Shown: positions 1,543 through 19,735 of the stretch, piece by piece | Layout of the letters: each line of letters opens with the position of its first letter | Position numbering within the stretch: position 1 is the first letter of the stretch | DNA from: an uncultured virus (IMG/VR IMGVR_UViG_3300038629_000369) | Lineage: Duplodnaviria > Heunggongvirae > Uroviricota > Caudoviricetes | Length of the DNA: 20,000 nt | Direction: 5' to 3' (one strand) | IMG/VR virus record: IMGVR_UViG_3300038629_000369 | Notes under the pieces: generated by a model | What the model saw: only the letters and a program-made list of their open reading frames with translations | Databases searched by the model: none | Told to the model about the DNA's origin: nothing | Position numbers and translations under genes: made by a program

Positions 1543-1575
1543 CGGGATATGTCCTTTCGGGTGTGCGGTGTGTCT

Positions 1576-1606
1576 CGCACCCTGCTCGACCGCGGTTGCC
1601 CGTTGC
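1576..1606 (-). promoter_or_regulatory. Repeated promoter-like motif, copy 1
   Basis: Minus strand GCAACGGGCAACCGCG GTCGA GCAG GGTGC|GAG; intergenic. Confidence 0.7.
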
Positions 1607-1630
1607 ATCCGTGGCCGAGCGCGGCGCCAG

Positions 1631-1867
1631 TCAGTCGACGTCGAAATACTTGCAGGCAGTCGCCAGCACGTGGTCGTAGTCGCCACTCAGCATTTCCTTT
1701 TGGAGCGCCGCCATCTGGTCGTGGCTCCAGCGTGCCTTGCGCGCTGCGCGCTTGCAGGCGCTGAGTACGGCGAGGGCGTGGCCGTCCCTTCCGGTCAGTT
1801 CGACTGAGGGCTTGGGGTCGCTGGTGGGAATGGTGGTTTCGGTCACTGCGGTATTCGTATTGCTCAT
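1631..1867 (-). CDS. Conserved small phage/MGE protein, 78 aa
   Basis: Pattern VELTGxDG(H/N)AxAVL...SGDYDHVLAT is typical of a widespread uncharacterised phage family; coupled to its neighbours. Confidence 0.8.
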   Translation of the reverse strand: MSNTNTAVTETTIPTSDPKPSVELTGRDGHALAVLSACKRAARKARWSHDQMAALQKEMLSGDYDHVLATACKYFDVD

Positions 1868-1869
1868 CT

Positions 1870-2016
1870 CTATCCGTTCCTTTCGATGTCACGACGCCAG
1901 CTGTTGCGGGCGTCTTTGCCACGCCGCTTGTTGCGGCTGGTCATGATCTTCATGCGGGGGTGACGCTTACGCATCGCTACCGCATACGGATTGCTCCGTT
2001 TGACGCGGCGTTTCAC
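1870..2016 (-). CDS. Small basic protein, 48 aa (VKRRVKRSNPYAVAMRKRH...)
   Basis: GTG at 2016 overlaps the upstream TGA (GTGA); GAGG upstream; fills the gap exactly. Confidence 0.6.
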   Translation of the reverse strand: MKRRVKRSNPYAVAMRKRHPRMKIMTSRNKRRGKDARNSWRRDIERNG

Positions 2017-2582
2017 GGCCGTGCCTCTGCACTGCACGCCGGGGCGCGCTGGACGCACGGGAGCCCTAGCGCCTCGATGGCGGCGAGCCGTGCTGCATCG
2101 CCCTCGGAGCGGCAGTCTTCCTCGCTGTGGAATCCGCCGCAGCTGTCCACCACATTGCCGTGGCGGTCCTCGATGACGAAACAGTAAATCTCTCCGCGCA
2201 GAAAGCGGTCGTAGTCGTCAACCTCGGCGACGAGGCACTCGGCAGCGCGCGCCAGCTCGACACCGATCTCGGTGAGCCGCTTGGCGGTCGTGTAGATGAC
2301 GCCCACGCGGCCGCTGTCCCAGCGGCAACCGAACGAGGTGGTGCTCATGCTGAGCCCGCTGTGATCCATGAGGTAGAGCGGCAACATGGCCACAGCACCA
2401 CACTCTTTGCGCAGGTGCTGCTCGATGGCTTCCCAGTCATCGAAATCGCTGTGATCCAACGCGAGGTTGTCGTCGCCAAGGCTGTAGCGCTGGTGGAAGC
2501 ACAGCATGGTGCCGACGTTGTCCCATTCGCGCGGCGACATGGGATCGGTGTCTTGCTCGACCCGAAGCTTGAATCTGTGCAT
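2013..2582 (-). CDS. Conserved phage/ICE protein, 189 aa (PREWDN...LPLYLxDHSG...WDSGxVG...DSCxGF family)
   Basis: ATG at 2582 after AGGAG; motif series recognised from uncharacterised phage/ICE proteins. Confidence 0.8.
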   Translation of the reverse strand: MHRFKLRVEQDTDPMSPREWDNVGTMLCFHQRYSLGDDNLALDHSDFDDWEAIEQHLRKECGAVAMLPLYLMDHSGLSMSTTSFGCRWDSGRVGVIYTTAKRLTEIGVELARAAECLVAEVDDYDRFLRGEIYCFVIEDRHGNVVDSCGGFHSEEDCRSEGDAARLAAIEALGLPCVQRAPACSAEARP

Positions 2583-2584
2583 CG

Positions 2585-3205
2585 CTATCTCCTGTTTGCC
2601 TGTTCGTTGAGTACATCGCGCAGCGTCTCGTGCGCAGTGCGCAGCGCCTTGCGTGTGAGCGGCGGCGTAGCCGCGCAGGGGCACGGCCCGTGGATGGGGT
2701 TGGTGTAGAGACACGCGCCCGTTGCCGGGTCGTGGCACGCCGCACCGTGAACGCAGTCACACCTCACCCCATGCTCGGGCGCGGTCGCCCGTTGCTCGGG
2801 GAGCTGCTCATCGGGGAGCTGCTCATCCGGATTCATGTAAACGGTCGCTTGCCAGTGACCCACGACACGCTTGTACGATGGGCCAGTCGACACGAGCTTG
2901 CGCCCAAGGTGTTGTGCCAAGAGCGCAAGCCCCTTCAGGGCGCCCGCGTTGCTGTGAGCGATGACGACCGCCGCGTGGCTGCCGGTGCGAGCGAAAACAA
3001 ATTCAGGTCGGTCACTCACAGCGCCAAAGTGTGGCGCATCTGGAATTCCCATTCCGGGACCGTCGATGTCGACCCGCTCGCCCGGCTCGAATTCGTCGAG
3101 CAGTGACATTGCGTCACGCTCGGTTGGCGTGTACTCGTCTTCGCACCACAACGGAAACGCCATGGTGCCATGTCGATGATGGTAGATCGCAAGCCACAGT
3201 TTCAC
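2585..3205 (-). CDS. Hypothetical protein, 206 aa, possibly a fusion; Cys/His-rich C-terminal module
   Basis: GTG at 3205 overlaps the VWA gene stop; contains a 15-bp tandem duplication (2796-2825) and an internal motif copy (2765-2795). Confidence 0.6.
   Translation of the reverse strand: MKLWLAIYHHRHGTMAFPLWCEDEYTPTERDAMSLLDEFEPGERVDIDGPGMGIPDAPHFGAVSDRPEFVFARTGSHAAVVIAHSNAGALKGLALLAQHLGRKLVSTGPSYKRVVGHWQATVYMNPDEQLPDEQLPEQRATAPEHGVRCDCVHGAACHDPATGACLYTNPIHGPCPCAATPPLTRKALRTAHETLRDVLNEQANRR
2765..2795 (-). promoter_or_regulatory. Repeated promoter-like motif, copy 2 (intragenic)
   Basis: GCAACGGGCGACCGCG CCCGA GCAT GGGGT|GAG. Confidence 0.65.
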
Positions 3206-4359
3206 AGCACAGCTCCTTGCATGGCGCCAATTTCGCCATCGCGCAGCTCCGCGCCGCCGATGGGGATGTATTCCTCCGCACGGGCCCGCAGTGGGTTGTC
3301 GCGGTCGATGGGACACTCCACCGCCACCGTCCAGAGCCGGGCGCCCAGCGCCTCGACGCGGTCGATAGCAGCCGTGTGGCGGCTGGTGATGTCCTCGACA
3401 CCATCCGTGATGAGGATGACGTCGGAGCCCTTGTTACCTTTCTTCGCGAGCCGGTCCACTTCGTCGGCGCCGTTCTCCAGCGCGAGCGCTGCGTCGTTGC
3501 CGCCGCCGAACCAGTGCTTGATCACTTTCATCAATCCGGAAGTGTCACCTACGGGCAGGTCCGTAATGTGCACGGAGCGCGACCAGTGCACCACCGAGCA
3601 GTGCCGTTCGTCCTCCCAAGCGGAGCGCACCAGTGCGATGGTTGCAGCCTTGCACCATTCGCCTCGCTCGCCGCTCATGGATCCCGATTCGTCAGCACAG
3701 ATCACGAGCGGTCCCTTGCTGCCGTCGTCCGTGCCGCGGTACTGGAATTGCAGCGCCTTGTGGTTAGCGAGGTTGTCGAGCAACAGGATCTCGGTCGGTT
3801 GACCGAGGTGAATCAGCTCACTGGGCAGTAGCCGCATGAGGTTGGAGCCCAGCTCCACGCTGTGCAAGTCCTCGGGCGCTGCCGCTACCTGCTCGCTCTT
3901 GGCGCGCTGTAGCTGGGCGAAGATACGTCCCGCCATTTTGGCGATCCGTACCATCTCGTCCGTCTTGTGGTCCGTGCGGAAGTCGCGGGTCGACTCCCAT
4001 GCGTCCGACTCGTCAAAGCCGAGCCCGTATTGGACGTCTGAGGCTTGCTTGGCGCGGTCAGCGAATGCGACCCATGCCTTGCGCGCCAGCTCACGCCGCT
4101 GAAACGGCGTTTCATGCTTGGCCACGTTCCAGTGAGCCCAAAGGCACTTGAGAGCGTAGGCGTTGGCCGTGCCGCCCAGCGCCAACACGCTGGCGTATTC
4201 GGATGGCGCAGTGTCCAGCGCTGCCTCGGTGTACGAGTCCAGCTCCGGGTCGCCGTCGCCCTTCGTGGCCATCCACAGAGCACGGGCCCCCGCGGGGTCC
4301 TGCTGGGCGCAATCGCGCACCACAGAATTGCGCTTACGCGCCTCAGACCATGTAGCCAT
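3202..4359 (-). CDS. VWA-domain protein (ViaA/CoxE-like partner of a MoxR AAA+)
   Basis: MIDAS-like DESGSM, GGGND and ITDG; GSNLMRLLPSEL segment typical of ViaA-like proteins; directly downstream of the ATPase; RBS GGAG (alternative TTG start at 4365). Confidence 0.88.
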   Translation of the reverse strand: MATWSEARKRNSVVRDCAQQDPAGARALWMATKGDGDPELDSYTEAALDTAPSEYASVLALGGTANAYALKCLWAHWNVAKHETPFQRRELARKAWVAFADRAKQASDVQYGLGFDESDAWESTRDFRTDHKTDEMVRIAKMAGRIFAQLQRAKSEQVAAAPEDLHSVELGSNLMRLLPSELIHLGQPTEILLLDNLANHKALQFQYRGTDDGSKGPLVICADESGSMSGERGEWCKAATIALVRSAWEDERHCSVVHWSRSVHITDLPVGDTSGLMKVIKHWFGGGNDAALALENGADEVDRLAKKGNKGSDVILITDGVEDITSRHTAAIDRVEALGARLWTVAVECPIDRDNPLRARAEEYIPIGGAELRDGEIGAMQGAVL

Positions 4360-4394
4360 TTTCAATTTCTCCGTTTGGGCGAGCCACCATGGCT

Positions 4395-4425
4395 CACACC
4401 CTGCTCGGTCGCGGTTGCCCGTTGC
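4395..4425 (-). promoter_or_regulatory. Repeated promoter-like motif, copy 3
   Basis: GCAACGGGCAACCGCG ACCGA GCAG GGTGT|GAG; overlaps a 19-bp-arm inverted repeat at 4400-4442. Confidence 0.7.
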
Positions 4426-4477
4426 AGCCGCGGTCGAGCAGGACGCCGGAGCCGTAGCTCCGAAGCGCCCCTTTGAA

Positions 4478-5692
4478 TCAGACCCGAAGGCCAGCCTTCA
4501 CTTCGTTGGCGAAAGCCGTTTTCATAACGCCCATTTCGCCCATGCGGCGCTTCACCTTGGCAGTGCCGCGCTTACCGAATTCGTTATTCTCGATGCGCTC
4601 TTTTATCGCGTCGCCGAGGTTCACCATTCGGGCGTTCAGCCGCAACAGCTTCGCGGGCCGCTCGGTCGGGTCAGTCGTGACGGCGTGGCCCTCGCGGAGC
4701 AGCTTGTCGATTGACTCGATGGCTTTCGCAGCCTCGCTGCGCTCCAGGGTGCGCAGCACAGCCAGCACCTTTTCACGCTGCTCGGGAGTGTCCCAAAGCA
4801 CGAAGCGCAGGATCTGCATGTGATCCACGTTCACGTCCGACTCGCCATCGAGCCAAGCGGCCGCTTTCAGCGCTTTCAGAAGCTTGACCGCACGACGATC
4901 GCTCATGACGATTCCGTCAGCCGCAAGCTTGCCCTTGATACTACGCAGCACCTTGACGATGTGCGCCGATATGGTGACCGTGTTGACGTCTGCGGCAATG
5001 GCGTCCAGCTCCGCTATGGTGAGCTGACACGGCACCGCGAACGTCGCGAGCGTACCGTCCGCTTTGGCCAGCAGCAGCGCCTCCCAAGCCTTATCGTCTT
5101 GGATGTAGCCGATCACGTCCCGGTACAAGAACCGGTCGTACAGCGCGCCCAGCGAGTCATCCTGTGGAAACTCGTTGCTGGCGCTAAAGCACGATCGCAG
5201 CGGTAGCTGGTGGACGATACCCTGCTCGCTGTATTTGCGCTCGTTGAGCGCGTTGAGCAGAGCGTTGAGGCTCAGCGTGTTCGCTTTCCAGATTTCATCC
5301 AGAAACACGATCTCCGCATCGGCAATGCCGCCAACGAGGTTACGTCGGTACACCTTTTCCAGCTGGAATTTAGCCAGATCCAGCGCTCCGAAAAGCTCGT
5401 CTGGTGTCATTGCCTTGTGCATGAGGCGACCGGCGAATTTGCTCGCCGGCTCCAGGCACTGAACGATCGTATCGATCAGCAGTGACTTGGCAGTGCCAGG
5501 CGGACCCATGGTGAACGTGTGCTCGTTGGTGACGAGCGCGGCGAGTGTCATTTCGACAGCCTCGTCCCGCTCCGTCAGAAACGCGCACATCGCGTCACGG
5601 ATCTGCCAGACTTTGGCACGCGCAGCCTCGACGTCTACGGCCGGAGCCGCTAGCGCCACGGCTGCGTTGCCGTCTGTTGCAGTGGTTTTCAT
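4478..5692 (-). CDS. MoxR-family AAA+ ATPase, RavA-like, 404 aa
   Basis: Walker A GPPGTAKS, Walker B IVFLDEIWKA, LNALLNALNER, sensor I ASNEFP, ALYDRF, sensor II SDRR. Confidence 0.93.
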   Translation of the reverse strand: MKTTATDGNAAVALAAPAVDVEAARAKVWQIRDAMCAFLTERDEAVEMTLAALVTNEHTFTMGPPGTAKSLLIDTIVQCLEPASKFAGRLMHKAMTPDELFGALDLAKFQLEKVYRRNLVGGIADAEIVFLDEIWKANTLSLNALLNALNERKYSEQGIVHQLPLRSCFSASNEFPQDDSLGALYDRFLYRDVIGYIQDDKAWEALLLAKADGTLATFAVPCQLTIAELDAIAADVNTVTISAHIVKVLRSIKGKLAADGIVMSDRRAVKLLKALKAAAWLDGESDVNVDHMQILRFVLWDTPEQREKVLAVLRTLERSEAAKAIESIDKLLREGHAVTTDPTERPAKLLRLNARMVNLGDAIKERIENNEFGKRGTAKVKRRMGEMGVMKTAFANEVKAGLRV

Positions 5693-5722
5693 ATCCAATG
5701 TTCCTCCGCGGTTGCCCGTTGC
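5692..5722 (-). promoter_or_regulatory. Repeated promoter-like motif, copy 4 (predicted +1 is the A of the ATPase ATG)
   Basis: GCAACGGGCAACCGCG GAGGA ACAT TGGAT|ATG. Confidence 0.7.
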
Positions 5723-5898
5723 CAGGCAAGCCACGAATCGAAAATTCAGAGTTGGCAGGATCGCCGTCCCCGATCGGCCCGCCAGGATTCGCAGGGCGTA
5801 TGGCCCTCAAGCGATGTTGCGCTGGTATCGGTCCCCTTTCGAGTGACCTCTACCAGCGATCCTGGCGAACCGATCGCGTGCGGCGAGCACGCTCATGC

Positions 5899-6177
5899 TC
5901 ACATGCCCATGGCACAGATCATGATGTAGCTGGCGAATTCGACCGGGTCGACGTCGCCGTTTTTCTTGTCGAGCGTGAGCTTCGCAATGCGCAGCCAGGG
6001 GCCACGCTGGCGCATCGCCCACGCACGTATCGAGTCGGATTCGACATGTGCGAGCGCTGCCTCTAGCAGCTGTGAGGCGTTGAGCGCGCTCAGCAGAACC
6101 TCGACGTCTACACGCTGGTCGTCCAGCGCTTCGTCGGCCAGGGCCATGGCCCTGGCGTTGTCAGTCTTGGCGCTCAT
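5899..6177 (-). CDS. Hypothetical protein, 92 aa (MSAKTDNA...)
   Basis: ATG overlaps the upstream TGA (ATGA). Confidence 0.65.
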   Translation of the reverse strand: MSAKTDNARAMALADEALDDQRVDVEVLLSALNASQLLEAALAHVESDSIRAWAMRQRGPWLRIAKLTLDKKNGDVDPVEFASYIMICAMGM

Positions 6178-6374
6178 CGCGGTGACAACGGCGGCAGATC
6201 GCCGCACGCCTTTCGGAAGCGTTCCACGTCGAAACGCGGGTTGTTCTCGCGACCCATGTAGATCGCCAGACTCACCATGCCGCGGATGAAAGCATCATTT
6301 AGCTCATCCTTGCCAGGCTTGACGCTGTGCGCGCGGATGTAGTCCGCCATCGCAACGAAATGCTTGCGTGTCAT
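6174..6374 (-). CDS. Conserved small phage protein, 66 aa (MTRKHF...NPRFDxERFxKAC)
   Basis: Strong RBS GAAAGGGG; motif typical of a widespread small phage family. Confidence 0.8.
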   Translation of the reverse strand: MTRKHFVAMADYIRAHSVKPGKDELNDAFIRGMVSLAIYMGRENNPRFDVERFRKACGDLPPLSPR

Positions 6375-6412
6375 TCGGATTTCCCCTTTCCGTGGGAGTG
6401 ATTGTAGTCGTG

Positions 6413-6443
6413 TCTCGCATGCGCCACAACGGTTGCCCGTTGC
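6413..6443 (-). promoter_or_regulatory. Repeated promoter-like motif, copy 5
   Basis: GCAACGGGCAACCGTT GTGGC GCAT; intergenic. Confidence 0.65.
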
Positions 6444-6487
6444 GGCCCATGAGGCACGCGGCTACGCGCTACGCAGGTTGCGCGGGC

Positions 6488-6775
6488 TCATCGCCAGCTG
6501 TCCAAGTCGCGAGCCAGCGCGGCGCGCTGTGCGTCGGCGATGTCATCCCGGTCGCATGGGAAGCAATCGGTCGCATAGCCGGCGCAGCACCCGAGCGTGT
6601 GACCGCACGTGCCGCAGCAATAGCCGCGCCACGTGTCGTCGTGCTGGTCCAGCTCCAGAATGGGCGATCCCCACCCCTCGCAATACTCCGGCAGCTTGTG
6701 TGCCGGTTCTACGCAGCCGTCACAGTAGGTCTGGCCGTCAAACAGCCACCCCACGACGCCAACGCCGGCGCTCAT
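6488..6775 (-). CDS. Cys-rich putative Zn-binding phage protein, 95 aa
   Basis: YCDGC, CGTC and CFPC motifs; ATGA overlap with the upstream gene. Confidence 0.7.
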   Translation of the reverse strand: MSAGVGVVGWLFDGQTYCDGCVEPAHKLPEYCEGWGSPILELDQHDDTWRGYCCGTCGHTLGCCAGYATDCFPCDRDDIADAQRAALARDLDSWR

Positions 6776-7293
6776 AGCGACCTCACAGCGCGGGGGGCGC
6801 TGGCGGTGACGATGGCGGCCGTCTGGAGCTTCGCGACGAGTGCGAAGCGATGCGCGGCGTTCGGGGTAATGTCGCCGTCCTCGGCGACGTGGCGCGGCCG
6901 GTAGGTCGGATGCGACGGCACCACGCTCGATGAGGCAGCGACGTTGCGCATGCGGGCAATCCCGGCGCAGCCTTGCACCTTTTGTGCCGCCTTGCTCATG
7001 TCGTTGAGTAGGACGGCATGGGGGCGCGGCTCGATTGCCGCGACGGCCGCGGTAGTCGGCTCAGGTGCCGGCTCAGGTGCCGGCTCAGGTGCCGGCTCAG
7101 GTGCCGGCTCAGGTGCCGGTGGCGCCTGGAGCGCGGCGTAGCGCGCCGTCAGCTCGCCAAAGTCGCCATACGAGCGGCTCTCGTATTGAGCCCTCGCAAG
7201 GGAGCTTGGAGCGGCGAGCGCTTGCGCTTCGTGCACGCCCTTGAAGGGCTTGCCATCACGCAGCGTTACCCGCCGGTATGTGTTTTCGTTCAT
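6772..7293 (-). CDS. Hypothetical protein with (APEP)5 linker, 173 aa; first gene of the left arm
   Basis: ATG at 7293 after GAGGA; in-frame 12-bp tandem repeat. Confidence 0.65.
   Translation of the reverse strand: MNENTYRRVTLRDGKPFKGVHEAQALAAPSSLARAQYESRSYGDFGELTARYAALQAPPAPEPAPEPAPEPAPEPAPEPTTAAVAAIEPRPHAVLLNDMSKAAQKVQGCAGIARMRNVAASSSVVPSHPTYRPRHVAEDGDITPNAAHRFALVAKLQTAAIVTASAPRAVRSL
7057..7119. repeat. 12-bp tandem repeat CGGCTCAGGTGC x5
   Basis: Five exact units at 7057-7116 plus CGG; encodes APEP on the minus strand. Confidence 0.97.
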
Positions 7294-7304
7294 GTTGTTG
7301 TCCT

Positions 7305-7384
7305 CACCACATGCTGTGTCGCGGCGGCTCGTTGCCGCCCTGTGCCGTGGTCTCACCCTATGCTGTGTCGCGGGTGCCCGTTGT
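7305..7384 (-). promoter_or_regulatory. Two tandem leftward motif copies (7305-7335, 7354-7384)
   Basis: GCAACGAGCCGCCGCG ACACA GCAT GTGGT|GAG and ACAACGGGCACCCGCG ACACA GCAT AGGGT|GAG. Confidence 0.65.
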
Positions 7385-7394
7385 CTTCGCGGCG

Positions 7395-7472
7395 TTATGC
7401 GTTACGGTAATTAGTCATACGTTACGATAATACTCATACGTTACGGTAATTCACATTATCGTAACGTATGAG
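7395..7472. repeat. AT-rich hub: four 17-bp elements TCATACGTTACG(G/A)TAAT, three direct (7395, 7415, 7434) and one inverted (7455-7471)
   Basis: Read directly; elements 3 and 4 form a 40-bp imperfect palindrome (7433-7472) at the exact point of transcriptional divergence. Confidence 0.93.
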
Positions 7473-7482
7473 ACCGTTCGCC

Positions 7483-7561
7483 GCAACCGGCAGCCGCGAC
7501 ACAACATGAGGTGACAGCACCGACACGGAGTCAACGGGGCGCCGCGACGGAGCATCACTTG
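7483..7561 (+). promoter_or_regulatory. Two tandem rightward motif copies (7483-7513, 7531-7561)
   Basis: GCAACCGGCAGCCGCG ACACA ACAT GAGGT|GAC and TCAACGGGGCGCCGCG ACGGA GCAT CACTT|GAG. Confidence 0.6.
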
Positions 7562-7597
7562 AGACACACACACAGCGCTGCGGCGCAACGGAGCAAC

Positions 7598-7927
7598 ATG
7601 AACAACTGTATCTTCAAGAACACCAAGCGCGGCGGCAAGCGCGTCGTGATGGGCCCCACCTCACTCGTGAAGGCGGGCGCCACCGTCACGGTGGACGGCG
7701 CCGACGTCGCCATCGACTCGGTCGGTCGCTCCTTCGAGCGTAGCGGCGTCGAATGCTGCTACGGCTACGGCGACTTCCCCAACGTCGCCGCGACCGCCGG
7801 GACCACGGCCCCCGCTGCCACCGACGAAATCGCTCAGCTTCGCGCTGAGGTCGCCGCTTCGGCCGCACAGGTCGCACAACTGCTCAGAGCGCTCGGCGCT
7901 GAGCAGGACGCTGCCGGGCCCGTCTAG
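7598..7927 (+). CDS. Hypothetical protein, 109 aa (MNNCIFKN...), C-terminal coiled coil; first gene of the right arm
   Basis: ATG at 7598 after GGAG; strong GC3 bias. Confidence 0.75.
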   Translation: MNNCIFKNTKRGGKRVVMGPTSLVKAGATVTVDGADVAIDSVGRSFERSGVECCYGYGDFPNVAATAGTTAPAATDEIAQLRAEVAASAAQVAQLLRALGAEQDAAGPV

Positions 7928-7988
7928 CAGCAACACAACCCAGGACGCTGGGCCCCTCGTGGGCCCTGCCTCCTGGCCGGTGCCCGTG

Positions 7989-8288
7989 TCAACGGGCATC
8001 CGCCAGGGTGCATGACGCATCTGCCATAAGGAGGCGCTCTCTTAGCGCAACGCGAGCCCGTCAACGGGTGTCCGCGAGGGTGCATGACGCATCCGAACAA
8101 CCCACAAGCGAAAGGTGGACCCCATGGTCGCCCCCATCGCAACCGCACGGCCTTCCCTGGAGGGTGCGCGAGCTTAACGGGCGCTACACGTAACCAAAGT
8201 GCGGTAGGCCGCACAAGGCAGAGGGCTTTCGAGCCCCCTCACGGGGATCCGCTGACTGCAACGGGTCTCCGTGAGGGCGCACGACGGG
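7989..8288 (+). promoter_or_regulatory. Three variant motif copies (7989-8019, 8061-8091, 8258-8288) in a structured non-coding stretch
   Basis: TCAACGGGCATCCGCC AGGGT GCAT GACGC|ATC; TCAACGGGTGTCCGCG AGGGT GCAT GACGC|ATC; GCAACGGGTCTCCGTG AGGGC GCAC. Confidence 0.55.
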
Positions 8289-8443
8289 AGGAATACACTT
8301 CCTGCCCCCGATCGTCTGCAACAACCACTTGCGCCATGCCGCTTAGCCGCGGCCGCTGGCGTAGAGATGTGAGCTGGACGTACCGGGGTGTCAAAGTGAC
8401 AACGGCCGTCGTGCGTCCTGCTTTTTTGGAAAGGACAACTCCA

Positions 8444-8692
8444 TTGCAACACACACAAATCCGACCGGGCGTCGTGAAACGCTCCCGGATCGTCACGGCG
8501 CTTCGGCGCGACGCGCGTGAGCGCGGCGTCGAGCTGGTATTCGACAGCCTCTGCTGGATCGTCTGGTATCGGTTCGCCGGCCGCAAGGTCAAGGCGGACA
8601 CCTACCGCTGCCCGCATACCGCACGAGCGGCCGCGAGCAAGCTCAACACCCTGCCCGCGCTGGATGCGTGGGTCACACGCTCCACCCGGTAA
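8444..8692 (+). CDS. Small basic hypothetical protein, about 82 aa
   Basis: TTG at 8444 after GGAAAGGA; 3' part of track ORF 8084..8692; start uncertain. Confidence 0.55.
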   Translation: MQHTQIRPGVVKRSRIVTALRRDARERGVELVFDSLCWIVWYRFAGRKVKADTYRCPHTARAAASKLNTLPALDAWVTRSTR

Positions 8693-8792
8693 CAACCGGC
8701 CAACAATCCAAACAACGGAGGTCCACCATTCGTTAGGTCTCGTGGGGACATACGGGCGCGCTGCCCCGCTTAAATAACCGGCGCGTCCACAC

Positions 8793-8880
8793 CGCACGTC
8801 TCGCCAATAAGGCTCCGGGTAGGAGCGCCTGAACAGGGTCGGCGAGGCTCGACAGGGTTCGACTCCCTGGCGTGCGACCA
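8793..8880 (+). ncRNA. tRNA-like RNA A (acceptor stem, T-arm, encoded CCA; no canonical anticodon arm)
   Basis: CGCACGT/GCGTGCG 7-bp stem, discriminator A plus CCA, T-arm CAGGG-TTCGACT-CCCTG. Confidence 0.65.
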
Positions 8881-9009
8881 TTCGTGTGCTCAAGCAGGGG
8901 CATGAGGACCGTGGGGAGACACCACCGGCTAAGAGAGGCCAGTGTCGGCCAGACCTCCGCTAGTGCTCCACGTGCAGGTTCGATTCCTGCCCCCGCTTGA
9001 GCACACGAA
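8881..9009 (+). ncRNA. tRNA-like RNA B (T-arm on a 19-bp closing stem with one bulge)
   Basis: TTCGTGTGCTCAAGC(A)GGGG pairs with CCCCGCTTGAGCACACGAA; T-arm GCAGG-TTCGATT-CCTGC at 8974-8990. Confidence 0.6.
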
Positions 9010-9051
9010 CAAAACACGCTAATCTCAAAACCTCAAAAAAAGGGGAACACC

Positions 9052-9225
9052 ATGTCGGTCACTGATCTGGCCGCGCTCGTATCGTCGATTCCGACGCATA
9101 CGGATGCGTGGCTTGCGTCACTGCACCCGAACATGGCGGGCGTCGACAGCATTGCGCTGTTCTGCGTCGCCGTGATCTCATTGCTAGGCTCGCGAGCAAT
9201 CGCGGGACGGAACTACAACCCATAG
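9052..9225 (+). CDS. Small membrane protein, 57 aa (below the ORF-track cutoff)
   Basis: RBS AAAGGGGA; hydrophobic SIALFCVAVISLLG segment. Confidence 0.65.
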   Translation: MSVTDLAALVSSIPTHTDAWLASLHPNMAGVDSIALFCVAVISLLGSRAIAGRNYNP

Positions 9226-9270
9226 CGACCTGCGTCCAGCCTTCGGCTGGGCGCCTCGCTGGATGCTGTG

Positions 9271-9301
9271 GCAACGGGCAACCGCGACGCAGCATCGAGC
9301 G
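9271..9301 (+). promoter_or_regulatory. Repeated promoter-like motif copy, enclosed by a 19-bp inverted repeat (9252-9306)
   Basis: GCAACGGGCAACCGCG ACGCA GCAT CGAGC|GAG. Confidence 0.7.
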
Positions 9302-9352
9302 AGGCGAGGCAATCCTGCCACGTCTCAGTTTCCGGAAAGGGGAACAGTAACC

Positions 9353-10480
9353 ATGACAAGTCATGTCACGCTGGAGACTCCAGCAGAGACACGCGACCGC
9401 TGCAAAGCGCACGGTGCCGAGTGGCTCGGCGATCGGCTGTCCTTTCGACAGGCGGGCGCTAGCTACAAGCGCAACGTGGTCCGCGGCGTCTTCGATGCTC
9501 ACGGCTACGGCAAGCATCTGCCTGCGGAGCCCAAGCCCGAGGCACAGCTCAAGCGAGCGGGCCGCGAGGGCCGCACGCCCAAGGGCTACATCACGCGACC
9601 GTTCGTGTCGCACAACCCCGACACGCCCATGGCGATCCATATCACCAAGGTCAGCGGCTCGGATGAGACCGGCGACAGCTACGACTGCCGCGCTCGGGTG
9701 CGCATCGCGCACCGTCTCGACCCCGTCACCGGGCTTGCGGAGCCGTTCGCGGTGGCCAAGCCCCCCGAGGGCCAGACCGAATTCACGGACCTCACGGCCC
9801 GCGACCGGGCCATCTGGATTGCCAATCATTGCAACGTGTTGTTGCACGAAGCGCAGAACAAGGATCTGGGTCTCTGGATCCGCTCGGTCTACACCGGCGT
9901 AGGCGCTGCTCAAGCGCTCGGCGGTGGAAACAACTACTGGGTGCCATCGGTCCTCTGCGACTCGATGCACGCCCTCATGGTGGACCTGGCCACACGGTTC
10001 GGCGTCCACTACGAACGCGACCCCAAGACCACCTTGGGAGCCCCGCACACCAAAGCGCTGTTCGCTCAAGCGGCCCAGCGCTCGCTGAGTGAGAGCGTGG
10101 CCGAAATGCGGGACGAGCTGCTCACCGCCGTCGAAAAGAGCGGTGGCAAGCGCAAGCGCAACGCCAGCAACCAGCACCAGCTCGACCGGCTCGAATCGCT
10201 GGGCGACAATATCGTGATGTGGAAAGACATCGTCGCTGAGCAGATCACCGGGCCCATGGCCGAGGTGTGCGAGCTGTATCGACAGCACTTCAACACGCTG
10301 ATCGACGGCGGCGAGGTCAAGCTCGACGACGACGACGGCGACGAGGGCGGCAACGCGCCGCCCGCGCCCAGCAGCGAGGGCTTCGCCCCCGCCAGCGAGC
10401 CGCCCGCGCAAGCGAGCGGCGAAGCGGTGCTCGCCGCGGCCGCCGCGGGCGACCCCGACCTCGACTGGCTCAACTGCTGA
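9353..10480 (+). CDS. Hypothetical phage protein, 375 aa, acidic low-complexity tail; possibly DUF6744/DUF3150-like
   Basis: ATG after GGAAAGGGG; strong GC3 bias; the GGGNNYWVP segment recalls that family (weak). Confidence 0.8.
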   Translation: MTSHVTLETPAETRDRCKAHGAEWLGDRLSFRQAGASYKRNVVRGVFDAHGYGKHLPAEPKPEAQLKRAGREGRTPKGYITRPFVSHNPDTPMAIHITKVSGSDETGDSYDCRARVRIAHRLDPVTGLAEPFAVAKPPEGQTEFTDLTARDRAIWIANHCNVLLHEAQNKDLGLWIRSVYTGVGAAQALGGGNNYWVPSVLCDSMHALMVDLATRFGVHYERDPKTTLGAPHTKALFAQAAQRSLSESVAEMRDELLTAVEKSGGKRKRNASNQHQLDRLESLGDNIVMWKDIVAEQITGPMAEVCELYRQHFNTLIDGGEVKLDDDDGDEGGNAPPAPSSEGFAPASEPPAQASGEAVLAAAAAGDPDLDWLNC

Positions 10481-10492
10481 GCCATCCCGATT

Positions 10493-10522
10493 CCCCAGCG
10501 CGCCGCTCGCGGTGCGCTGGGG
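10493..10522 (+). terminator. GC-rich 13-bp hairpin after the 375-aa gene (no U tract)
   Basis: CCCCAGCGCGCCG-CTCG-CGGTGCGCTGGGG. Confidence 0.4.
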
Positions 10523-10612
10523 CGTCTAAGAGTGCCGTCAAGCGGCCCTTTCCGTCACGTGTGTTGTGTCTACTTTCTGCTTTCCGCAACCGCTTGACGG
10601 CACCCTTAGACG
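10523..10612. repeat. 23-bp inverted repeat (1 mismatch) around a 44-nt spacer
   Basis: CGTCTAAGAGTGCCGTCAAGCGG ... CCGCTTGACGGCACCCTTAGACG. Confidence 0.9.
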
Positions 10613-10644
10613 TTCAAACCATCACCCCGAAAGCACCAATCGCA

Positions 10645-10821
10645 ATGTGTCAATGGATCGGCTGGACCCGCGGCTACGTGGGGCACGCATGGCTCAACGG
10701 AGAGCTGAGCACAGCAGAGCTGCACGACCACTGCACCGGTTTCGAGTACCTGCGCGCACAGCATGACCGCTATGTGGAACGGCTCGTGTCGCGCTACGAC
10801 CGAAGGGACATATCGAGATGA
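10645..10821 (+). CDS. Hypothetical protein, 58 aa
   Basis: ATG at 10645; stop overlaps the next ATG (ATGA); weak RBS. Confidence 0.5.
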   Translation: MCQWIGWTRGYVGHAWLNGELSTAELHDHCTGFEYLRAQHDRYVERLVSRYDRRDISR

Positions 10822-11051
10822 GCAAGAAAATTCTGCATACCCAGCTACTGGGGCGCCGCGTCAAGTTCGACGACGGTATCAACGACAAGATCGCCGGCGA
10901 GACGGCTACCATCCGGTCGGTCTTTATCGATCGTGAAAGCGGCGATCCGATCTACAGCGTCGAGTTGGATGACGGGCGACTATTCGAGGGAGCCACGTCG
11001 ACATTCTTCACCCTGTTACAAGAGCAGCTCGACGATGAGGTATCGCGATGA
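10818..11051 (+). CDS. Small protein, possible SH3-like beta-barrel, 77 aa
   Basis: RBS GAAGGGA; LGRRVKF...G...YSVELDDG pattern. Confidence 0.75.
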   Translation: MSKKILHTQLLGRRVKFDDGINDKIAGETATIRSVFIDRESGDPIYSVELDDGRLFEGATSTFFTLLQEQLDDEVSR

Positions 11052-11335
11052 GCGACAACCTCATGACCGAGCGCATCTACATGGCCATCGGTGGCCACGG
11101 CTGGGGCAAGGGCCTTAGCGCCGACGAGGCGAAGCGCCAGGCGCGCCAGCGCGCAAAGCGCGGCACCCGCTTGCGCGTCTACCGGCTGCCACGTGGCGCG
11201 CACAGCGCCTACGTTAACGAGATGGGTGACCTGCGCTGGCTTTTTCAGGACGGCGCCGACACCGAGGCTCAGGCCGAATTGGTGGAGCCCCGGCCGCGAG
11301 TGCAACGGGCAACCGCGACGGAGCATGGGGCATGA
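11048..11335 (+). CDS. Hypothetical protein, 95 aa
   Basis: GAGG RBS; ATGA coupling at both ends. Confidence 0.75.
   Translation: MSDNLMTERIYMAIGGHGWGKGLSADEAKRQARQRAKRGTRLRVYRLPRGAHSAYVNEMGDLRWLFQDGADTEAQAELVEPRPRVQRATATEHGA
11302..11332 (+). promoter_or_regulatory. Repeated promoter-like motif copy (predicted +1 is the A of ATG 11332)
   Basis: GCAACGGGCAACCGCG ACGGA GCAT GGGGC|ATG. Confidence 0.7.
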
Positions 11336-11529
11336 CCACTATCGAGCTGACCGCCGACGAGCTGCACGTCATCACGGGCGCGCTGCGCGTGGCCGGCACG
11401 CAGTACGACAGGGACGCAAAAGATATGCGCTTCAGTGTCCCCGTTAACGAGCGGCTAGTGGAACAATTCGACCGCCAAGCGAGCGACGCGCGGCAGCTTC
11501 TCGAACGACTGGAGAATCTCGATGACTGA
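11332..11529 (+). CDS. Small helical hypothetical protein, 65 aa
   Basis: Coupled to both neighbours. Confidence 0.7.
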   Translation: MTTIELTADELHVITGALRVAGTQYDRDAKDMRFSVPVNERLVEQFDRQASDARQLLERLENLDD

Positions 11530-12166
11530 ACTACTCGACTGGGGACTGCGACACGCGGTGCCCAAGCACGCACCCGTCGCGTGGGGCGCTCGCGCCATCA
11601 TCCACGACGGCGGACAGACCTTTGAGCTGCTGGGCGACCGCCAGCAGATGGTTGGGGCGCCCGCGCTCCGCAAGGCACTGGGTCGCGCCATGAACGGCGC
11701 CGATGGCAAGCAGGACGGCTACCTCGCGAAAGCGCAGGCCGAGTACCGCGAACTGTCACTGTTCGGCGGGCTGCGCTGGAGCAGCGAGGGTGAGGTGCAG
11801 CTCGTGCACGACCACCACGTGTGCATCCAGGCCGACCCCCGCGGCAGTTTTGGATACCTGTACGTCGCCGCGTGGTTCGACGCTGACGACATCGACACGA
11901 GCGACGCTGTTTGCTACGGCACCGAGGGCTACGGCGACGACGCCACGCCCCTCAAGTGGTCGCACAGCGAGCCGCCGCCAGCGATCGGCGAAGACCGAGA
12001 CTTCGGGCTGCGCGTCGGTCGCGCCACCGTGGTGGGCTACCGCGAGACACACGGCTTCCTGATGGCGCTCGTGGTTCCCTACGAGGCTTTCTGTAATCCC
12101 GACCGCTTGCCCGTCGTGGCCGTCTACGGCTGCGACATCGTCGAGCCTGAAAGCGAGGCATCCTGA
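11522..12166 (+). CDS. CbeA/YeeU (YagB/YfjZ)-like type IV antitoxin domain plus a C-terminal extension of about 95 aa
   Basis: WGL...WGARAI...LLGDR...G and IQADPRGSFGYLYVAAW align by eye with YeeU WGL...FGARLV...LADR...G and CEADTLxSCGYVYLAVY. Confidence 0.7.
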   Translation: MTELLDWGLRHAVPKHAPVAWGARAIIHDGGQTFELLGDRQQMVGAPALRKALGRAMNGADGKQDGYLAKAQAEYRELSLFGGLRWSSEGEVQLVHDHHVCIQADPRGSFGYLYVAAWFDADDIDTSDAVCYGTEGYGDDATPLKWSHSEPPPAIGEDRDFGLRVGRATVVGYRETHGFLMALVVPYEAFCNPDRLPVVAVYGCDIVEPESEAS

Positions 12167-12620
12167 TGAGCTGGAACAAGCTAGTCGAAAACCTGCGCAG
12201 GCTCATCGTTGCGCGTGTCGAAGAACGCGACCTGGACCTCAACACGGTGCTGAGCATCGTGCAAAGCGCTGAGATGAGAAACGTCATGGTGGACGCCACG
12301 GAGGAATACCAACGCCTCTGCGCGACCGACATCGTGAAGAAGCTGGCGCACGTGGCTGAGCAGAAGCGCTGCGCGTGGATGCGCTCCGAGCTGGCAAGCG
12401 CCGCCGACTACTGCGGCAACGCGCTCCAAGCGTGGCAGTGGCACGAGGACGAAGCGCAGCGCAAGCTCGCGCTGGGCGAGTGCTTGTGCTGCGCGGCCGT
12501 GGCCGCGCACACCGAGGCCCGCTACGAGCGCTGCCCCGAGTGCGGCAAAACGCAACCGGAGCCGAATCCGGACGACGCGCCGCATCCCCCCAACGACCTA
12601 GAAAGTGAGGCATCCTGATG
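12149..12620. repeat. 20-bp direct repeat GAAAG(C/T)GAGGCATCCTGATG at 12149-12168 and 12601-12620
   Basis: 19/20 identical; two consecutive proteins both end in ESEAS. Confidence 0.9.
12166..12618 (+). CDS. Hypothetical protein with C-terminal Zn ribbon, 150 aa
   Basis: CLCC...CPECG; TGATG coupling at both ends. Confidence 0.75.
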   Translation: MSWNKLVENLRRLIVARVEERDLDLNTVLSIVQSAEMRNVMVDATEEYQRLCATDIVKKLAHVAEQKRCAWMRSELASAADYCGNALQAWQWHEDEAQRKLALGECLCCAAVAAHTEARYERCPECGKTQPEPNPDDAPHPPNDLESEAS

Positions 12621-12947
12621 GCTGTAATCATCTACCCCAACGGTAGCGACGCGCCCATGGCGCCGCCTGCGAACGGCAAGAGCTACACGCTCGCCGAGAT
12701 GTACGCCGCCATCGGTTGCGACATGGTGCAATCCGTGCGCATTACCAACGACGACGTGCTGCTCATGGACGAGGAAGCGAAGCTGCCCCGCAACGGGCAA
12801 CCGCGGCCCAGCGTCAACGTGAGAGCGACCGGCATGGCCAGCGGCGTGCTGCGCTTCGGCGACAAGATCATCGGCACCGTAGTGCACGTCCGGCTCACTG
12901 AGTCCGGCGACTGGGTGCCGCTCACAAAGGAAGGGACATCCGAATGA
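12618..12947 (+). CDS. DUF3846-like phage protein, 109 aa
   Basis: TLAEMYAAIGC..VQ.V...LLMDEEAKL...NVRAT...IIGTVV pattern. Confidence 0.75.
   Translation: MAVIIYPNGSDAPMAPPANGKSYTLAEMYAAIGCDMVQSVRITNDDVLLMDEEAKLPRNGQPRPSVNVRATGMASGVLRFGDKIIGTVVHVRLTESGDWVPLTKEGTSE
12790..12820 (+). promoter_or_regulatory. Repeated promoter-like motif copy (intragenic)
   Basis: Exact GCAACGGGCAACCGCG then GCCCA GCGT. Confidence 0.55.
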
Positions 12948-13825
12948 CTGATCAACAACAGGCGCAGGCTGCCGACGACGCAGCGCCCAAGGGTCCACCG
13001 TTCAAGGTGGAGGCCAAGCTGTGGCACTACAGCGAGACCACCGACGACCGCCGCAACAAGCAGTATTACCGGCGCGTGCGGTTCGGCGTGAACATTCTCA
13101 TTCGAGACTATGGCGCACAGCGCAAGCTCGACGACCGGGTGCACTGGCAGACGGAGAGCGTGCGCTCGCCGCTCGGATACGCCCGTGACGCGCTCGACAA
13201 GGCGATGGCAGAGTGCCCGTGGCCGGTGCGCGTCAAGGAGTCCACCTACCACGGTGGCTCCAGCCGCCTGACCGAGCGGGAGCGCACCGCGTGCGATGAT
13301 GAATACGAATACAGTATCGGTTATGCGTTCGTGGCTACGTTCCACGCGCCCAAGCCGAGCAAGATCCCGTCCGAGGAATACTGCATGGCGGCACTCGGCG
13401 ACGCGGATAACCTGGGCCCCTTCATGGCTGAGGCCATGGAGCGTGGCTTCGAGACGGCGCGCGAAGAAAAGCGCGCCTACGAGCGTGCTCGCATCGCGAG
13501 TCTCATGGTGGTCGACTACGCCGAGCGCGTGGACGATCGTGCATTGAAAAACGTACGTTTCGAGCAGCGCTACGCAGCGCTCGTCGCCGAGTACAAAGCA
13601 GAGCTGGAAGTTCAGACGGCTGAGCTTCTCACCGAGCTGGGCGCGGAGCACGGGATGACGTGGAGCGACGCGCCCGACTACGTGCCCGACGAACGCAGCA
13701 CCAGCGCTGCAAAGGCGACGCTACCGAAGCTCATCGCCAACAAGAACTCGCCGGCCGAGCGCGGAGGCTTCTTCCACAGCGCCGGGCAGAGCAAGATGGC
13801 CGTCGACATCGAGGACGTGCGCTAA
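12944..13825 (+). CDS. Hypothetical protein, 293 aa
   Basis: RBS AAGGAAGGGA, ATGA coupling, GC3 bias. Confidence 0.8.
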   Translation: MTDQQQAQAADDAAPKGPPFKVEAKLWHYSETTDDRRNKQYYRRVRFGVNILIRDYGAQRKLDDRVHWQTESVRSPLGYARDALDKAMAECPWPVRVKESTYHGGSSRLTERERTACDDEYEYSIGYAFVATFHAPKPSKIPSEEYCMAALGDADNLGPFMAEAMERGFETAREEKRAYERARIASLMVVDYAERVDDRALKNVRFEQRYAALVAEYKAELEVQTAELLTELGAEHGMTWSDAPDYVPDERSTSAAKATLPKLIANKNSPAERGGFFHSAGQSKMAVDIEDVR

Positions 13826-14173
13826 ATGCTTCCGGGTTGGCAAGCCGAGCGATGGGGCTACCAGCGCCAGGACGGCCAAGCCAAAGTGGAGACCCATGGC
13901 CCCCACGGCGGCCGCTGGGCCGTGTATGTGCTGTATGGCATCGACTGGCGCCTCGTGAAGCGGAACATCAAAGGCGAGGACAGGGCCATGACCATGGCCG
14001 ACGCAGCGCTGGACGACCGGCGCCCAGCGCGCCCGCTAAACCCAGGCAATCGAGAAACCTGCGATAACTGCGGCGGTGAGTTTGTGCTCGACGACGCAGC
14101 CAGCGGCCGCGAGCGCGCATTCAACCTCAACGGCACGGTGCACGTGTGCGCCGACTTCTACAAGGACTGGTAA
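13826..14173 (+). CDS. Hypothetical protein with C-terminal CxxC...HxC motif, 115 aa
   Basis: TAAATG abutting junctions at both ends. Confidence 0.7.
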   Translation: MLPGWQAERWGYQRQDGQAKVETHGPHGGRWAVYVLYGIDWRLVKRNIKGEDRAMTMADAALDDRRPARPLNPGNRETCDNCGGEFVLDDAASGRERAFNLNGTVHVCADFYKDW

Positions 14174-14386
14174 ATGCAGACATACAAAATCATGCGTTAC
14201 TTCTTCGAGGGCCATTGTCCGGAGATTGTCCACACCGGCCTGACGCTGGACGAAGCGCAAGAGCACTGCAACAATCCCGAGACGGACAGCACGACCTGCA
14301 CCAGCGCGACGGCCCGCCAGTTGGCTGTGAAGCGCGGGCGGTGGTTCGACGGTTACGTGACGGAGATCGCGCGAGAGGGGATCTAA
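14174..14386 (+). CDS. Conserved small phage protein, 70 aa (YKIxR...GLTLDEAQEHC..PET...WFDGY)
   Basis: AAGGA RBS; motif typical of a widespread small phage family. Confidence 0.8.
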   Translation: MQTYKIMRYFFEGHCPEIVHTGLTLDEAQEHCNNPETDSTTCTSATARQLAVKRGRWFDGYVTEIAREGI

Positions 14387-14387
14387 A

Positions 14388-17210: not shown

Positions 17211-17277
17211 GCCCCCGGCACGCCGGAGCTGAGTTTTGTCCTTTCTCAGCTCTCGGCGCGCCGGGGGCCTTTTTTTT
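17211..17277 (+). terminator. Intrinsic terminator ending the right-arm operon
   Basis: Long GC-rich stem (GCCCCCGGCACGCCGGAGCTGAG / CTCAGCTCTCGGCGCGCCGGGGGC) followed by T8. Confidence 0.75.
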
Positions 17278-17358
17278 GTCCAGAATTTGGCAATTTCAGA
17301 TGGGCCAACGTGATCGAAATAGGGTGTCAGATCCGTGTTCGGTGCACGTCCTTAAAGT

Positions 17359-18999: not shown

Positions 19000-19482
19000 A
19001 TGCCTACGGTTCAACAGTTGATGGAGTGGATGCGAAGTGGCGAGGGGCGGCTCATCGCAGCCGCCGTGCTCTACATTCTGATGTGGCTGCTCAAGGCTCA
19101 CGTGCCGATCGTTGAGAAGTGGCTTCAGACAGACGGAAAGCTCAACAGTAAGCGCAAAAAGGCGCTCGCCAACGTCGTGCTCGCCATGGCTCCGGTGGCC
19201 GTGGTACTCACCGACACCAGTCAGTCCGTCACCGAGGCATTCTGGTTGGCGGTAGGCACCGCGACGAGCGCTGGCGGCATTCACAGCTTCGGTAAAGCGC
19301 TGCTGCACAAGCCCAAGGCGTCCGAGTCTGCGAAGTCTGAGCCCGACCCCGGCGAGCCCGACAAGGAGAGCGACGATGACGGCGACGAGGCAGCTGAGGC
19401 TAGCAAAGACGACGGCTCAGCCGACGACACCAGACGCACCGAGCCAGCTGCCGGCGACGAAGCCTCCAGCGACGAGAGCTGA
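19000..19482 (+). CDS. Holin-like membrane protein with acidic tail, 160 aa
   Basis: ATG after AGGAG; two to three hydrophobic segments; directly follows the lysin. Confidence 0.65.
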   Translation: MPTVQQLMEWMRSGEGRLIAAAVLYILMWLLKAHVPIVEKWLQTDGKLNSKRKKALANVVLAMAPVAVVLTDTSQSVTEAFWLAVGTATSAGGIHSFGKALLHKPKASESAKSEPDPGEPDKESDDDGDEAAEASKDDGSADDTRRTEPAAGDEASSDES

Positions 19483-19735
19483 CTGCGAGTACGGCCCGCG
19501 GCCGTGTCCCTACTACACATGCCGCCACCATTTGTGGATGGATCGCCGAGTCGTCCGGCTGGATGAGCTTCCCGCGGATACCTGTTCGCTTGATGTTGCC
19601 AAGGAAGGCGGGGCGACGCTCGGTCGCGTGGGTGTTGTGTTTGGTCTGACGCGCGAACGCATCCGTCAAATCGAGGCCATCGCGATACGTAAGCTTGAGA
19701 TGCGTGGCGTGCACCTGCGTGTTTTCTTCTACTAG
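19376..19735 (+). CDS. Stand-alone sigma70 region 4 HTH protein with N-terminal Cys/His motif, 119 aa
   Basis: TLGRVGVVFGLTRERIRQIEAIAIRKL matches sigma70 region 4.2; TRADC...RPCPYYTCRHHL...C; AAGGAG 7 nt upstream of the ATG. Confidence 0.85.
   Translation: MTATRQLRLAKTTAQPTTPDAPSQLPATKPPATRADCEYGPRPCPYYTCRHHLWMDRRVVRLDELPADTCSLDVAKEGGATLGRVGVVFGLTRERIRQIEAIAIRKLEMRGVHLRVFFY

Follow-up and report, generated by a model that had tools for sequence, protein, structure and literature searches.

Promoter-early stem-loop (PeSL) cassettes have been described in the T4-like phages RB49/phi1, PST and nt-1 (PMC2839356, PMC4122927). Phage T7 has promoter/RNase III site pairs, phi3.8/R3.8 and phi6.5/R6.5 (PMC6938266). 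Extracytoplasmic function (ECF) promoters of Myxococcus xanthus share AAc and cGT, with GTAA-n16-CGT for DdvS (PMC6061681), and some ECF promoters carry conserved spacer elements (PMC5333181). For dif/Xer systems, the comparators are the dif sites of Anaeromyxobacter and Myxococcus (PMC2731167), and the attP sites of integrative mobile elements exploiting Xer (IMEX) together with plasmid resolution sites (PMC5357621). The window analysed here is a 20,000-nt stretch of DNA from an uncultured virus of the Caudoviricetes (IMG/VR record IMGVR_UViG_3300038629_000369). It contains fifteen outward-facing copies of a motif, GCAACGGGCAACCGCG and its variants. With a dif-like site at its middle and hairpins enclosing part of it, the array is probably a variation on the known phage promoter cassettes. 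Judged from its sequence, the motif is reasonably probably an early or accessory-gene promoter of a phage-like element of about 140 kb from a probable Myxococcota host, read by a host non-sigma70 enzyme and accompanied by hairpins and a dif-like terminus. The hairpin arms and the dif-like centre are features absent from the preliminary description of this DNA.

GCAACGGGCAACCGCG occurs exactly six times in the window; nine variants complete the set, and all fifteen lie where they had been reported. Allowing up to three mismatches raises the count to 12, where 0.92 would be expected, and none of 200 shuffles reaches 12. A matrix built from the 15 copies and run across the whole window scores them at 24.9-46.2 bits. 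The next-best scores are 11.4 bits, which is an antisense echo of the palindromic copy at 6443, and 10.1 bits; the best score in ten Markov shuffles is 10.2 bits. The copies are thus cleanly separated (24.9-46.2 versus at most 11.4 bits), and their leave-one-out scores are 10.8-42.4 bits. The scan finds no copy past 12.9 kb, in agreement with the preliminary description. Three of the fifteen (2795, 11302 and 12790) sit within coding sequence. The fixed gap reported earlier is present throughout: CAAC is found at motif positions 2-5 and GCAT or a listed variant at positions 22-25, 16 nt on, in 15 of 15. A pyrimidine|purine (Y|R) step follows at 30|31 in 12 of the 15, as Y|GAG in seven; only the copies at 6443, 8258 and 12790 lack it. 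In the copies at 5722 and 11302 the purine is, as had been noted, the A of an ATG (5692 and 11332).

Relatives with the motif were recovered through alignment of 18 homologues of the protein encoded at 9353. They are G001 (41.7 kb, locus L015), G002 (143.7 kb, complete) and L099 (4.7 kb); G003, a partial twin of G002, was left out of the counts. The 9353 protein is 38-41% identical to its counterparts, and MoxR and von Willebrand factor A (vWA) proteins are also common to G001 and G002. G001 was recovered independently by an exact 16-mer scan of viral contigs, which gives 17 loci, 16 of them singletons, with L015 (four copies) as the sole cluster. A metagenome scan gives 14 loci, every one a singleton. 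A relaxed motif scan gives 52 loci, with several matches only in G001. A matrix from the window copies alone finds four copies in G001 at 27-32 bits (next 8.4) and eight in L099 at 16-36 bits; its top four matches in G002 (22-11 bits) are three core copies and one outer copy. With two copies added by eye (G002 88342 and L099 1479), the total is 33 copies in four elements.

The core layout is common to all four elements: two leftward and two rightward copies stand at the point where gene direction diverges. Between the inner two copies the distance is 99, 100, 98 and 99 nt in the four, and tandem copies are spaced by 37-58 nt. G001 has only these four core copies in its 41.7 kb. In the window the second and inner leftward core copies lie at 7303..7335 and 7352..7384 on the minus strand, and the inner and second rightward copies at 7483..7515 and 7531..7563 on the plus strand. 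The predicted starts of the second copies are 7305, 12 nt ahead of an ATG, and 7561, 37 nt ahead of an ATG. The outward orientation noted earlier is seen in all 15 window copies, which face away from the centre at 7400-7466. Orientation is not random in the relatives either: 33 of 33 copies face away from the centre. However, transcription diverges at 7430, so that to follow gene direction is the same as to face away from 7430. Orientation is therefore confounded with gene divergence and is uninformative on function.

A promoter class with +1 at 30 nt from the motif start had been proposed. The relatives support this prediction; the Y|R step is present in all 18 copies outside the window. Overall it is found in 30 of 33 copies, against a background of 27%. 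Because the first matrix included the Y|R positions, the search was repeated with positions 1-25 only. In the three relatives, 14 of the 16 matches of this blind matrix above 10 bits have the Y|R step; the other two are isolated G002 matches far from the centre. An ATG with a ribosome site starts exactly at position 31 in five of the 33 copies (background 0.4%), and a gene start lies within 65 nt of 25 of them (background 19%). The Y|R step, the ATG at +1 and the nearby gene starts make promoters with the predicted +1 the best reading, and the array would probably be a set of conserved early promoters of an unfamiliar type.

The putative promoters fit neither the sigma70 nor the sigma54 class. 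Sigma70-type sites in the window number two against 3.1 expected, and none is at a copy; a sigma70 promoter was thus rejected, and another system must start these transcripts. Sigma54 promoters have GG-N10-GC at -24/-12. The position table shows no conserved GC 10 nt past a conserved GG, and sigma54 was also rejected. The upstream box is CAAC at positions 2-5 in 30 of 33 copies (the exceptions are CATC, AAAC and TAAC), in keeping with the AAC of ECF-type -35 boxes. The motif spacer retains C5, G7, G8, C12, G14, C15 and G16. The spacer GGGCAACCGCG had been proposed to be bound as a unit. As written this does not hold, since 18 different middle triplets occur among the 33 copies; what is conserved is the C-x-G-N4-C-x-G frame with the CG after it.

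A phage sigma factor or phage RNA polymerase had been offered as the reader. This finds no support in the complete relative G002. No Sigma70_r2, r4 or r4_2 match is present there (positive controls matched in 10-14 of 14 genomes), and no RNA polymerase was found among 160 open reading frames (ORFs) scanned against Pfam. G002 has no RNA_pol match; the PF00940 search lacked a positive control. A weak HrdB/SigA match to a G002 ORF was rejected as a Lys/Arg/Ala-rich stretch. The DxDGD motif is absent from the six frames of G001, G002 and the window. Sigma region 2 was not found in G002, nor in the further relatives G005, G006 and G007; L125/G007, which has a 28% vWA match, was checked only for sigma region 2, the large recombinase and the G005-type element. 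In the window the scan for a sigma factor or RNA polymerase finds a region-4-only protein alone. Since no sigma factor or polymerase was detected in G002, a host enzyme is likelier, and the reader is likely to be a host non-sigma70 enzyme.

The ECF proposal stands in part. AAC-N17-CGT is present in four of four G001 copies; however, the tetramer at positions 22-25 has 14 forms in 33 copies, has G at position 24 in a minority only and lies at -9 to -6 from the Y|R step. In ECF promoters the -10 box is farther from +1 than this tetramer. The CGT -10-type box is found in one of 15 window copies. The likeness to the M. xanthus promoters lies in the AAC upstream box, in CGT 17 nt past AAC in G001 and in a host that is likely of the same phylum. 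Unlike those promoters, most copies have CAT, CAG or CAA rather than CGT, conservation of the spacer equals that of the boxes, and just 5 nt separate the tetramer from the Y|R step. An ECF sigma as the reader is a fair lead from the sequence, not a result.

The centre of the array contains four recombinase-type arms with the consensus CGT(T/G)AC-NN-TAA, which occur at the centre only. Arm 1 (CGTTACGGTAA) is at 7400..7410 and arm 2 (CGTTACGATAA) at 7420..7430, both on the plus strand; arm 3, a 6-nt centre and the inverted arm 4 form a 28-bp dif-like site at 7439..7466. With a leave-one-genome-out matrix the arms rank first in the window and G001, and three of four are at the top in G002 and L099. 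The outer arm is 16-17 nt from motif position 1 at all eight inner copies (in the window, 16 nt from arm 1 and 17 nt from arm 4). This phasing is mirrored, the linker is unconserved and the arm falls at about -46 to -57. The 11-6-11 layout of two inverted 11-bp arms is present in the window, G001, G002, L099, G005 and G006. On both strands, 14 of the 17 specified bases at 7439-7466 agree with Anaeromyxobacter dif, which was taken from a table in PMC2731167 and picked by eye as the closest dif; none of 200 shuffles does as well. Over 22 arm bases, the site is the best or tied-best match to this dif in the window (15) and in G005 and G006 (15-16).

A palindrome scan gives 14 loci. G001, G005 and G006 have the centre between divergent genes; the other 11 lack such gene context and were dropped as chance. 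G005 and G006 are complete records with 17 proteins common with G002, including a large XerC/D-like recombinase. They have the same centre without the CAAC motif and carry another mirrored outward element instead. At L109 4900-5103 and L117 4903-5087, a different mirrored 27-30-nt element with a GGGGGCYGTTCC core flanks the same dif-like centre, ahead of divergent genes. This element would probably be another type of promoter in the family. A conserved trio of unknown genes (G002 35504-38460) is also common to G005 and G006. In the three complete relatives the centre is 0.6 kb (G005), 5.8 kb (G002) and 13.8 kb (G006) from the cumulative GC-skew maximum, which is usually the replication terminus.

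The XerC/D-like proteins of G005, G002 and G006 are 1220-1280 aa long, and their domain scores below curated cut-offs. The family is encoded at G002 125788-129456, G001 34361-38071, G005 121465-124605 and G006 13768-15345; the domain is at about residues 306-490, and some 700 residues are of unknown function. The likeliest role of the centre would be to serve the element's own recombinase as a resolution or attachment site; a less likely alternative is a replication origin whose skew is reversed. The likeness to dif/Xer systems consists of the 28-bp 11-6-11 site, the XerD-type arms, the position near the GC-skew maximum and an XerC/D-like recombinase in the genome. Those systems differ in having distinct XerC and XerD arms, whereas both centre arms here are XerD-like and symmetric. 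The centre also has two additional arms, its outer arms have putative promoters phased to them, and the recombinase, of about 1220-1280 aa, is encoded at a distance of 12-37 kb.

At many copies the upstream sequence can pair with the motif, and the loop often includes or adjoins CAA. When shuffling is limited to the 30 nt upstream, the upstream-arm hairpin reaches p<0.05 at 12 of 17 outer, four of eight second and one of eight inner copies; the z-scores of outer and core copies differ (p=0.003). The upstream arms vary in sequence and register from copy to copy. Pairing of downstream sequence with the motif is no more than chance. A CGG-N4-CCG mini-hairpin was rejected as an RNA structure, as 10 of 33 copies have lost its pairing with no compensatory change. 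No promoter-overlapping hairpin is found among terminator-like matches. Copies without an upstream transcript lack the arm, which would fit a structure in read-through RNA.

Six outer window copies have hairpins that pass both shuffle tests. On the minus strand these are 1574..1606 (predicted +1 1576), which forms the 3' arm of a hairpin at about 1577-1627; 4393..4425 (+1 4395), ahead of the vWA gene, with a hairpin at about 4396-4446; and 5690..5722, whose predicted +1 is the A of the MoxR ATG, with a hairpin at about 5694-5750. On the plus strand they are 7989..8021 (about 7968-8012), 8258..8290 (about 8229-8284), which has G|G at 30|31, and 9271..9303 (9252-9306), ahead of the DUF6744-like gene. 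The last of these hairpins is kept in L099, where two pairs are compensatory and an A-U pair has become G-U. Three copies pass one test. The copy at 6411..6443 (minus) is self-complementary with a GCAA-loop hairpin (9/100 shuffles; p 0.015). That at 2763..2795 (minus; +1 2765), inside the 3' part of ORF 2585-3316, has a doubtful hairpin (28/100 shuffles; p 0.05). The third, at 12790..12822 (plus), is the weakest copy in the window and lies inside the DUF3846 gene. Neither test is passed by 8061..8093 (plus), 33 nt ahead of a small ORF, with a short weak hairpin that is borderline in one test (5/100 shuffles; p 0.33), or by 11302..11334 (plus), in the last codons of ORF 11048-11335. The inner core copies at 7352..7384 and 7483..7515 have no hairpin.

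PeSL cassettes resemble this array in the repeated intergenic unit of promoter (putative here), stem-loop (here at many copies), ribosome site and ATG, in the hyperplastic ORFan region and in gene-precise indels. However, the promoters of PeSLs are of sigma70 type and AT-rich in their upstream part, and the window motif is not sigma70-like. The PeSL stem-loop is just upstream of the promoter; here the hairpin, at 12 of 17 outer copies, overlaps the promoter, which is itself the 3' arm, and has no U-tract. The window array also radiates from a dif-like core, unlike PeSLs. The likeness to T7 is that internal promoters coincide with hairpins that could be processed in read-through transcripts; in contrast to T7, no polymerase was detected here and most of the hairpin is upstream of +1.

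The window is filled with dense small genes diverging from about 7430. They include genes for a vWA protein (3202..4365, minus), a MoxR AAA+ ATPase (4478..5692, minus; 47% and 41% identical to the G001 and G002 homologues), a DUF6744-like protein (9353..10480, plus), a DUF3846 protein, an SLT lysin and a Cys-rich sigma70 region-4-only protein (19376..19735, plus). The DUF6744-like protein is the family marker; it clusters with DUF6744 at a score of 0.90-0.91, a lead, and has no Pfam match. The trio of MoxR, vWA and DUF6744-like genes (3202-5692, 9353-10480) is kept in all long relatives, on differing divergence arms. The region-4-only protein is, from its sequence, not a full sigma factor, as region 2 is missing. 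Its named homologues are mostly from Myxococcota/Polyangia, with one from Gammaproteobacteria. Window DNA occurs in marine sediment and marine DNA sequencing runs, with no RNA run listed among them, and the source is probably a virus of marine myxobacteria (Myxococcota). The record of G002 includes primase, helicase, tail and lysin matches; no terminase, portal, capsid (60 ORFs against PHROGs; PF03237; atlas) or DNA polymerase was recognised in it. The term phage thus rests on the IMG/VR class and on the tail and lysin matches. The core DNA and the region-4 protein have no match among 50,697 GenBank phage records, and single-protein locus searches found no locus. A literature search, which covered few subscription journals and did not query the literal motif string, found no publication on this element; the main text of a 2026 preprint on myxobacterial viruses (10.64898/2026.09.14.751636), in the part available, does not mention a promoter, XerC or MoxR.

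Other features accompany the early genes. A tRNA-like RNA is found at 8793-8880 (plus) in the window, at L099 1638-1725 (plus) and near 13983 (minus) in G001. It has a 7-bp acceptor stem, a T-arm and a 3' ACCA; the D and anticodon arms are replaced by a pair of inner hairpins, of which one carries a conserved GGGUA loop. Between the window and L099, eight of 27 pairs are compensatory (3/500 shuffles). ARAGORN and Rfam do not call it; in the whole window ARAGORN gives nothing and Rfam only three chance miRNA matches. It is a candidate tRNA mimic or processing signal. Another long hairpin that also has a T-arm follows directly 3' of it (z -5.2; window 8881-9010, plus; G001 near 12609, minus). 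A tiny ORF starting MVAP stands behind a motif copy at 8124-8177 (plus) and in L099 from 1520 onward (plus), matched by eye; one strain contig skips it. Pro-Glu-Pro-Ala-type linkers in early proteins are coded by 12-nt tandem repeats (window 7045-7119; L033 14557-14916). The rightward early arm ends at a strong terminator-like hairpin with a U-tract at 17249-17278 (plus), about 4.4 kb past the last copy. G002 also has motif-free intergenic cassettes (L033 3594-3668, 4117-4191, 5672-5746, 6478-6552 and 6987-7053), each consisting of a stop codon, a small palindrome, a long hairpin and, last, GGAGGACAACAAC-ATG. In the window, this ribosome site also stands behind the copy at 7335.

The proposed mechanism is as follows. 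The reader would be host RNA polymerase with an alternative, perhaps ECF-type, sigma factor. Its promoter elements would be CAAC at -29 to -26, RGG at -25 to -23, C(C/A)GCG at -19 to -15, RC(A/G)N at -9 to -6 and Y|R at -1/+1. The four recombinase-type arms, with the dif-like site at the replication terminus, would lie between two tandem pairs of promoters, one pair per early arm, and outer copies would re-start transcription ahead of downstream genes. At many outer copies a copy-specific upstream arm may pair with the promoter sequence in read-through RNA; the hairpin could then punctuate or process the upstream transcript, by RNase III-type cleavage or pausing, where new transcription begins. 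It is doubtful, although conceivable, that these elements form an undescribed Myxococcota phage family of about 140 kb with a new class of host-alternative-sigma promoters, in which a giant Xer-like recombinase, bound at the replication terminus to the arms at -46 to -57 of the inner promoters, switches both early arms and so ties early transcription to the state of the chromosome, and in which promoter-as-hairpin cassettes allow single genes to be exchanged together with a start and a processing signal of their own.

Several points weigh against the host-read promoter and its associated parts. The copies' orientation cannot be separated from the terminus. The set of 33 includes two copies, one each in G002 and L099, that were entered by eye, and the G002 copies are weak (two of five exceed 10 bits without positions 26-33). 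In all five copies with ATG at +1 the motif itself contains a GGAG/GAGG ribosome site, and the ATG spacing could then be accounted for by read-through RNA. The tetramer in the -10-like place is degenerate and nearer +1 than in ECF promoters, and the rest of the window's own genome, past 20 kb, could encode a sigma factor. The Myxococcota host is inferred from two clues, and the L099 contig belongs to a genome bin titled Gammaproteobacteria. The dif likeness is unremarkable in G001, G002 and L099 (11-13 of 22 arm bases). Hairpins are robust in both tests for only six of 11 outer window copies, the difference in stability between sense and antisense is not significant (p=0.059), and for the 9271 hairpin the covariation between two sequences, though suggestive, falls short of significance (124/500 shuffles).

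Some of these points would suit an RNA processing or translation element in long early transcripts, with position 31 as a cleavage point or simply the spacing from ribosome site to ATG. The outer copies form hairpins, the ribosome site is within the motif in every ATG case, and early genes of G002 are separated by motif-free double hairpins ending at a ribosome site. This explanation is nevertheless unlikely: the inner copies keep the full sequence with neither a hairpin nor an identifiable upstream promoter, the sequence is fixed while hairpin registers vary among copies, and the uncompensated loss of the CGG-N4-CCG pairing in 10 of 33 copies is not expected of an RNA element. The copies could also be promoters of a highly divergent phage-encoded or virion-packaged RNA polymerase or sigma factor, including DNA-hairpin recognition of the N4 type. 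Conservation from -29 to -15 is near-contiguous, unlike typical host promoters, and the different mirrored element at the same place in G005 and G006 looks like a lineage-specific specificity. Several G002 ORFs of 760-1100 aa have no informative family or structure match, and in bin G004 the motif is confined to the phage contig, and it occurs once in 40 other genomes of that bin's phylum, which by its title is not Myxococcota. The N4 virion RNA polymerase is very large, and a conserved short DNA hairpin is found at every one of its promoters. The largest G002 ORF is 1222 aa, and the inner copies, without hairpins, and the unconserved 5' arms are unlike N4 promoters; as DxDGD and sigma region 2 are also missing from the genomes searched, a phage-supplied reader has a slim chance.

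If the copies were polar sites for replication or segregation proteins around the terminus, such as a Ter-like fork trap or KOPS-like guides, the switch of orientation at a dif-like site near the GC-skew maximum and the 16-17-nt phasing of all eight inner copies to the outer arms would follow. Such sites do not predict the Y|R step, the ATG at +1 or leaders of 0-65 nt. G005 and G006 have the same centre without the motif, and GGGNAGGG has no polarity toward the centre (9:12, 11:7 and 6:4), which leaves this explanation improbable. Gene shuffling has also to be considered, with the copies as attC-, REP- or PeSL-type crossover sites. Gene order differs between the window and L099, where the homologue of ORF 7598 is relocated with its own copy, and relatives encode a tyrosine recombinase. 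Single strain contigs show gene-precise, whole-gene indels. Fifteen of 17 strain joints were considered; dropping two with 21-base sides leaves 13, three of which fall no more than 4 nt from a motif edge (8021, 11331 and 12786). However, no copy-to-copy joint is found among the 15, no GTTRRRY partner box is present, G001 keeps just its four core copies, and the Y|R and ATG phasing is left unexplained. A recombination function is thus very improbable, and gene shuffling at the copies could be a side effect of promoters.

Read as host-dependent early promoters, the copies would provide a precise promoter consensus and predicted starts for uncultured phages whose predatory host phylum has received little study. 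The combination of a dif-like palindrome with mirrored outward elements serves as a marker of the family; it recovered five more related virus records and one binned contig. The motif points to a non-housekeeping host sigma factor, which would be unusual for early phage genes. The conserved phasing of recombinase site and divergent promoters suggests that dimer resolution or integration may be linked to gene control in these elements.

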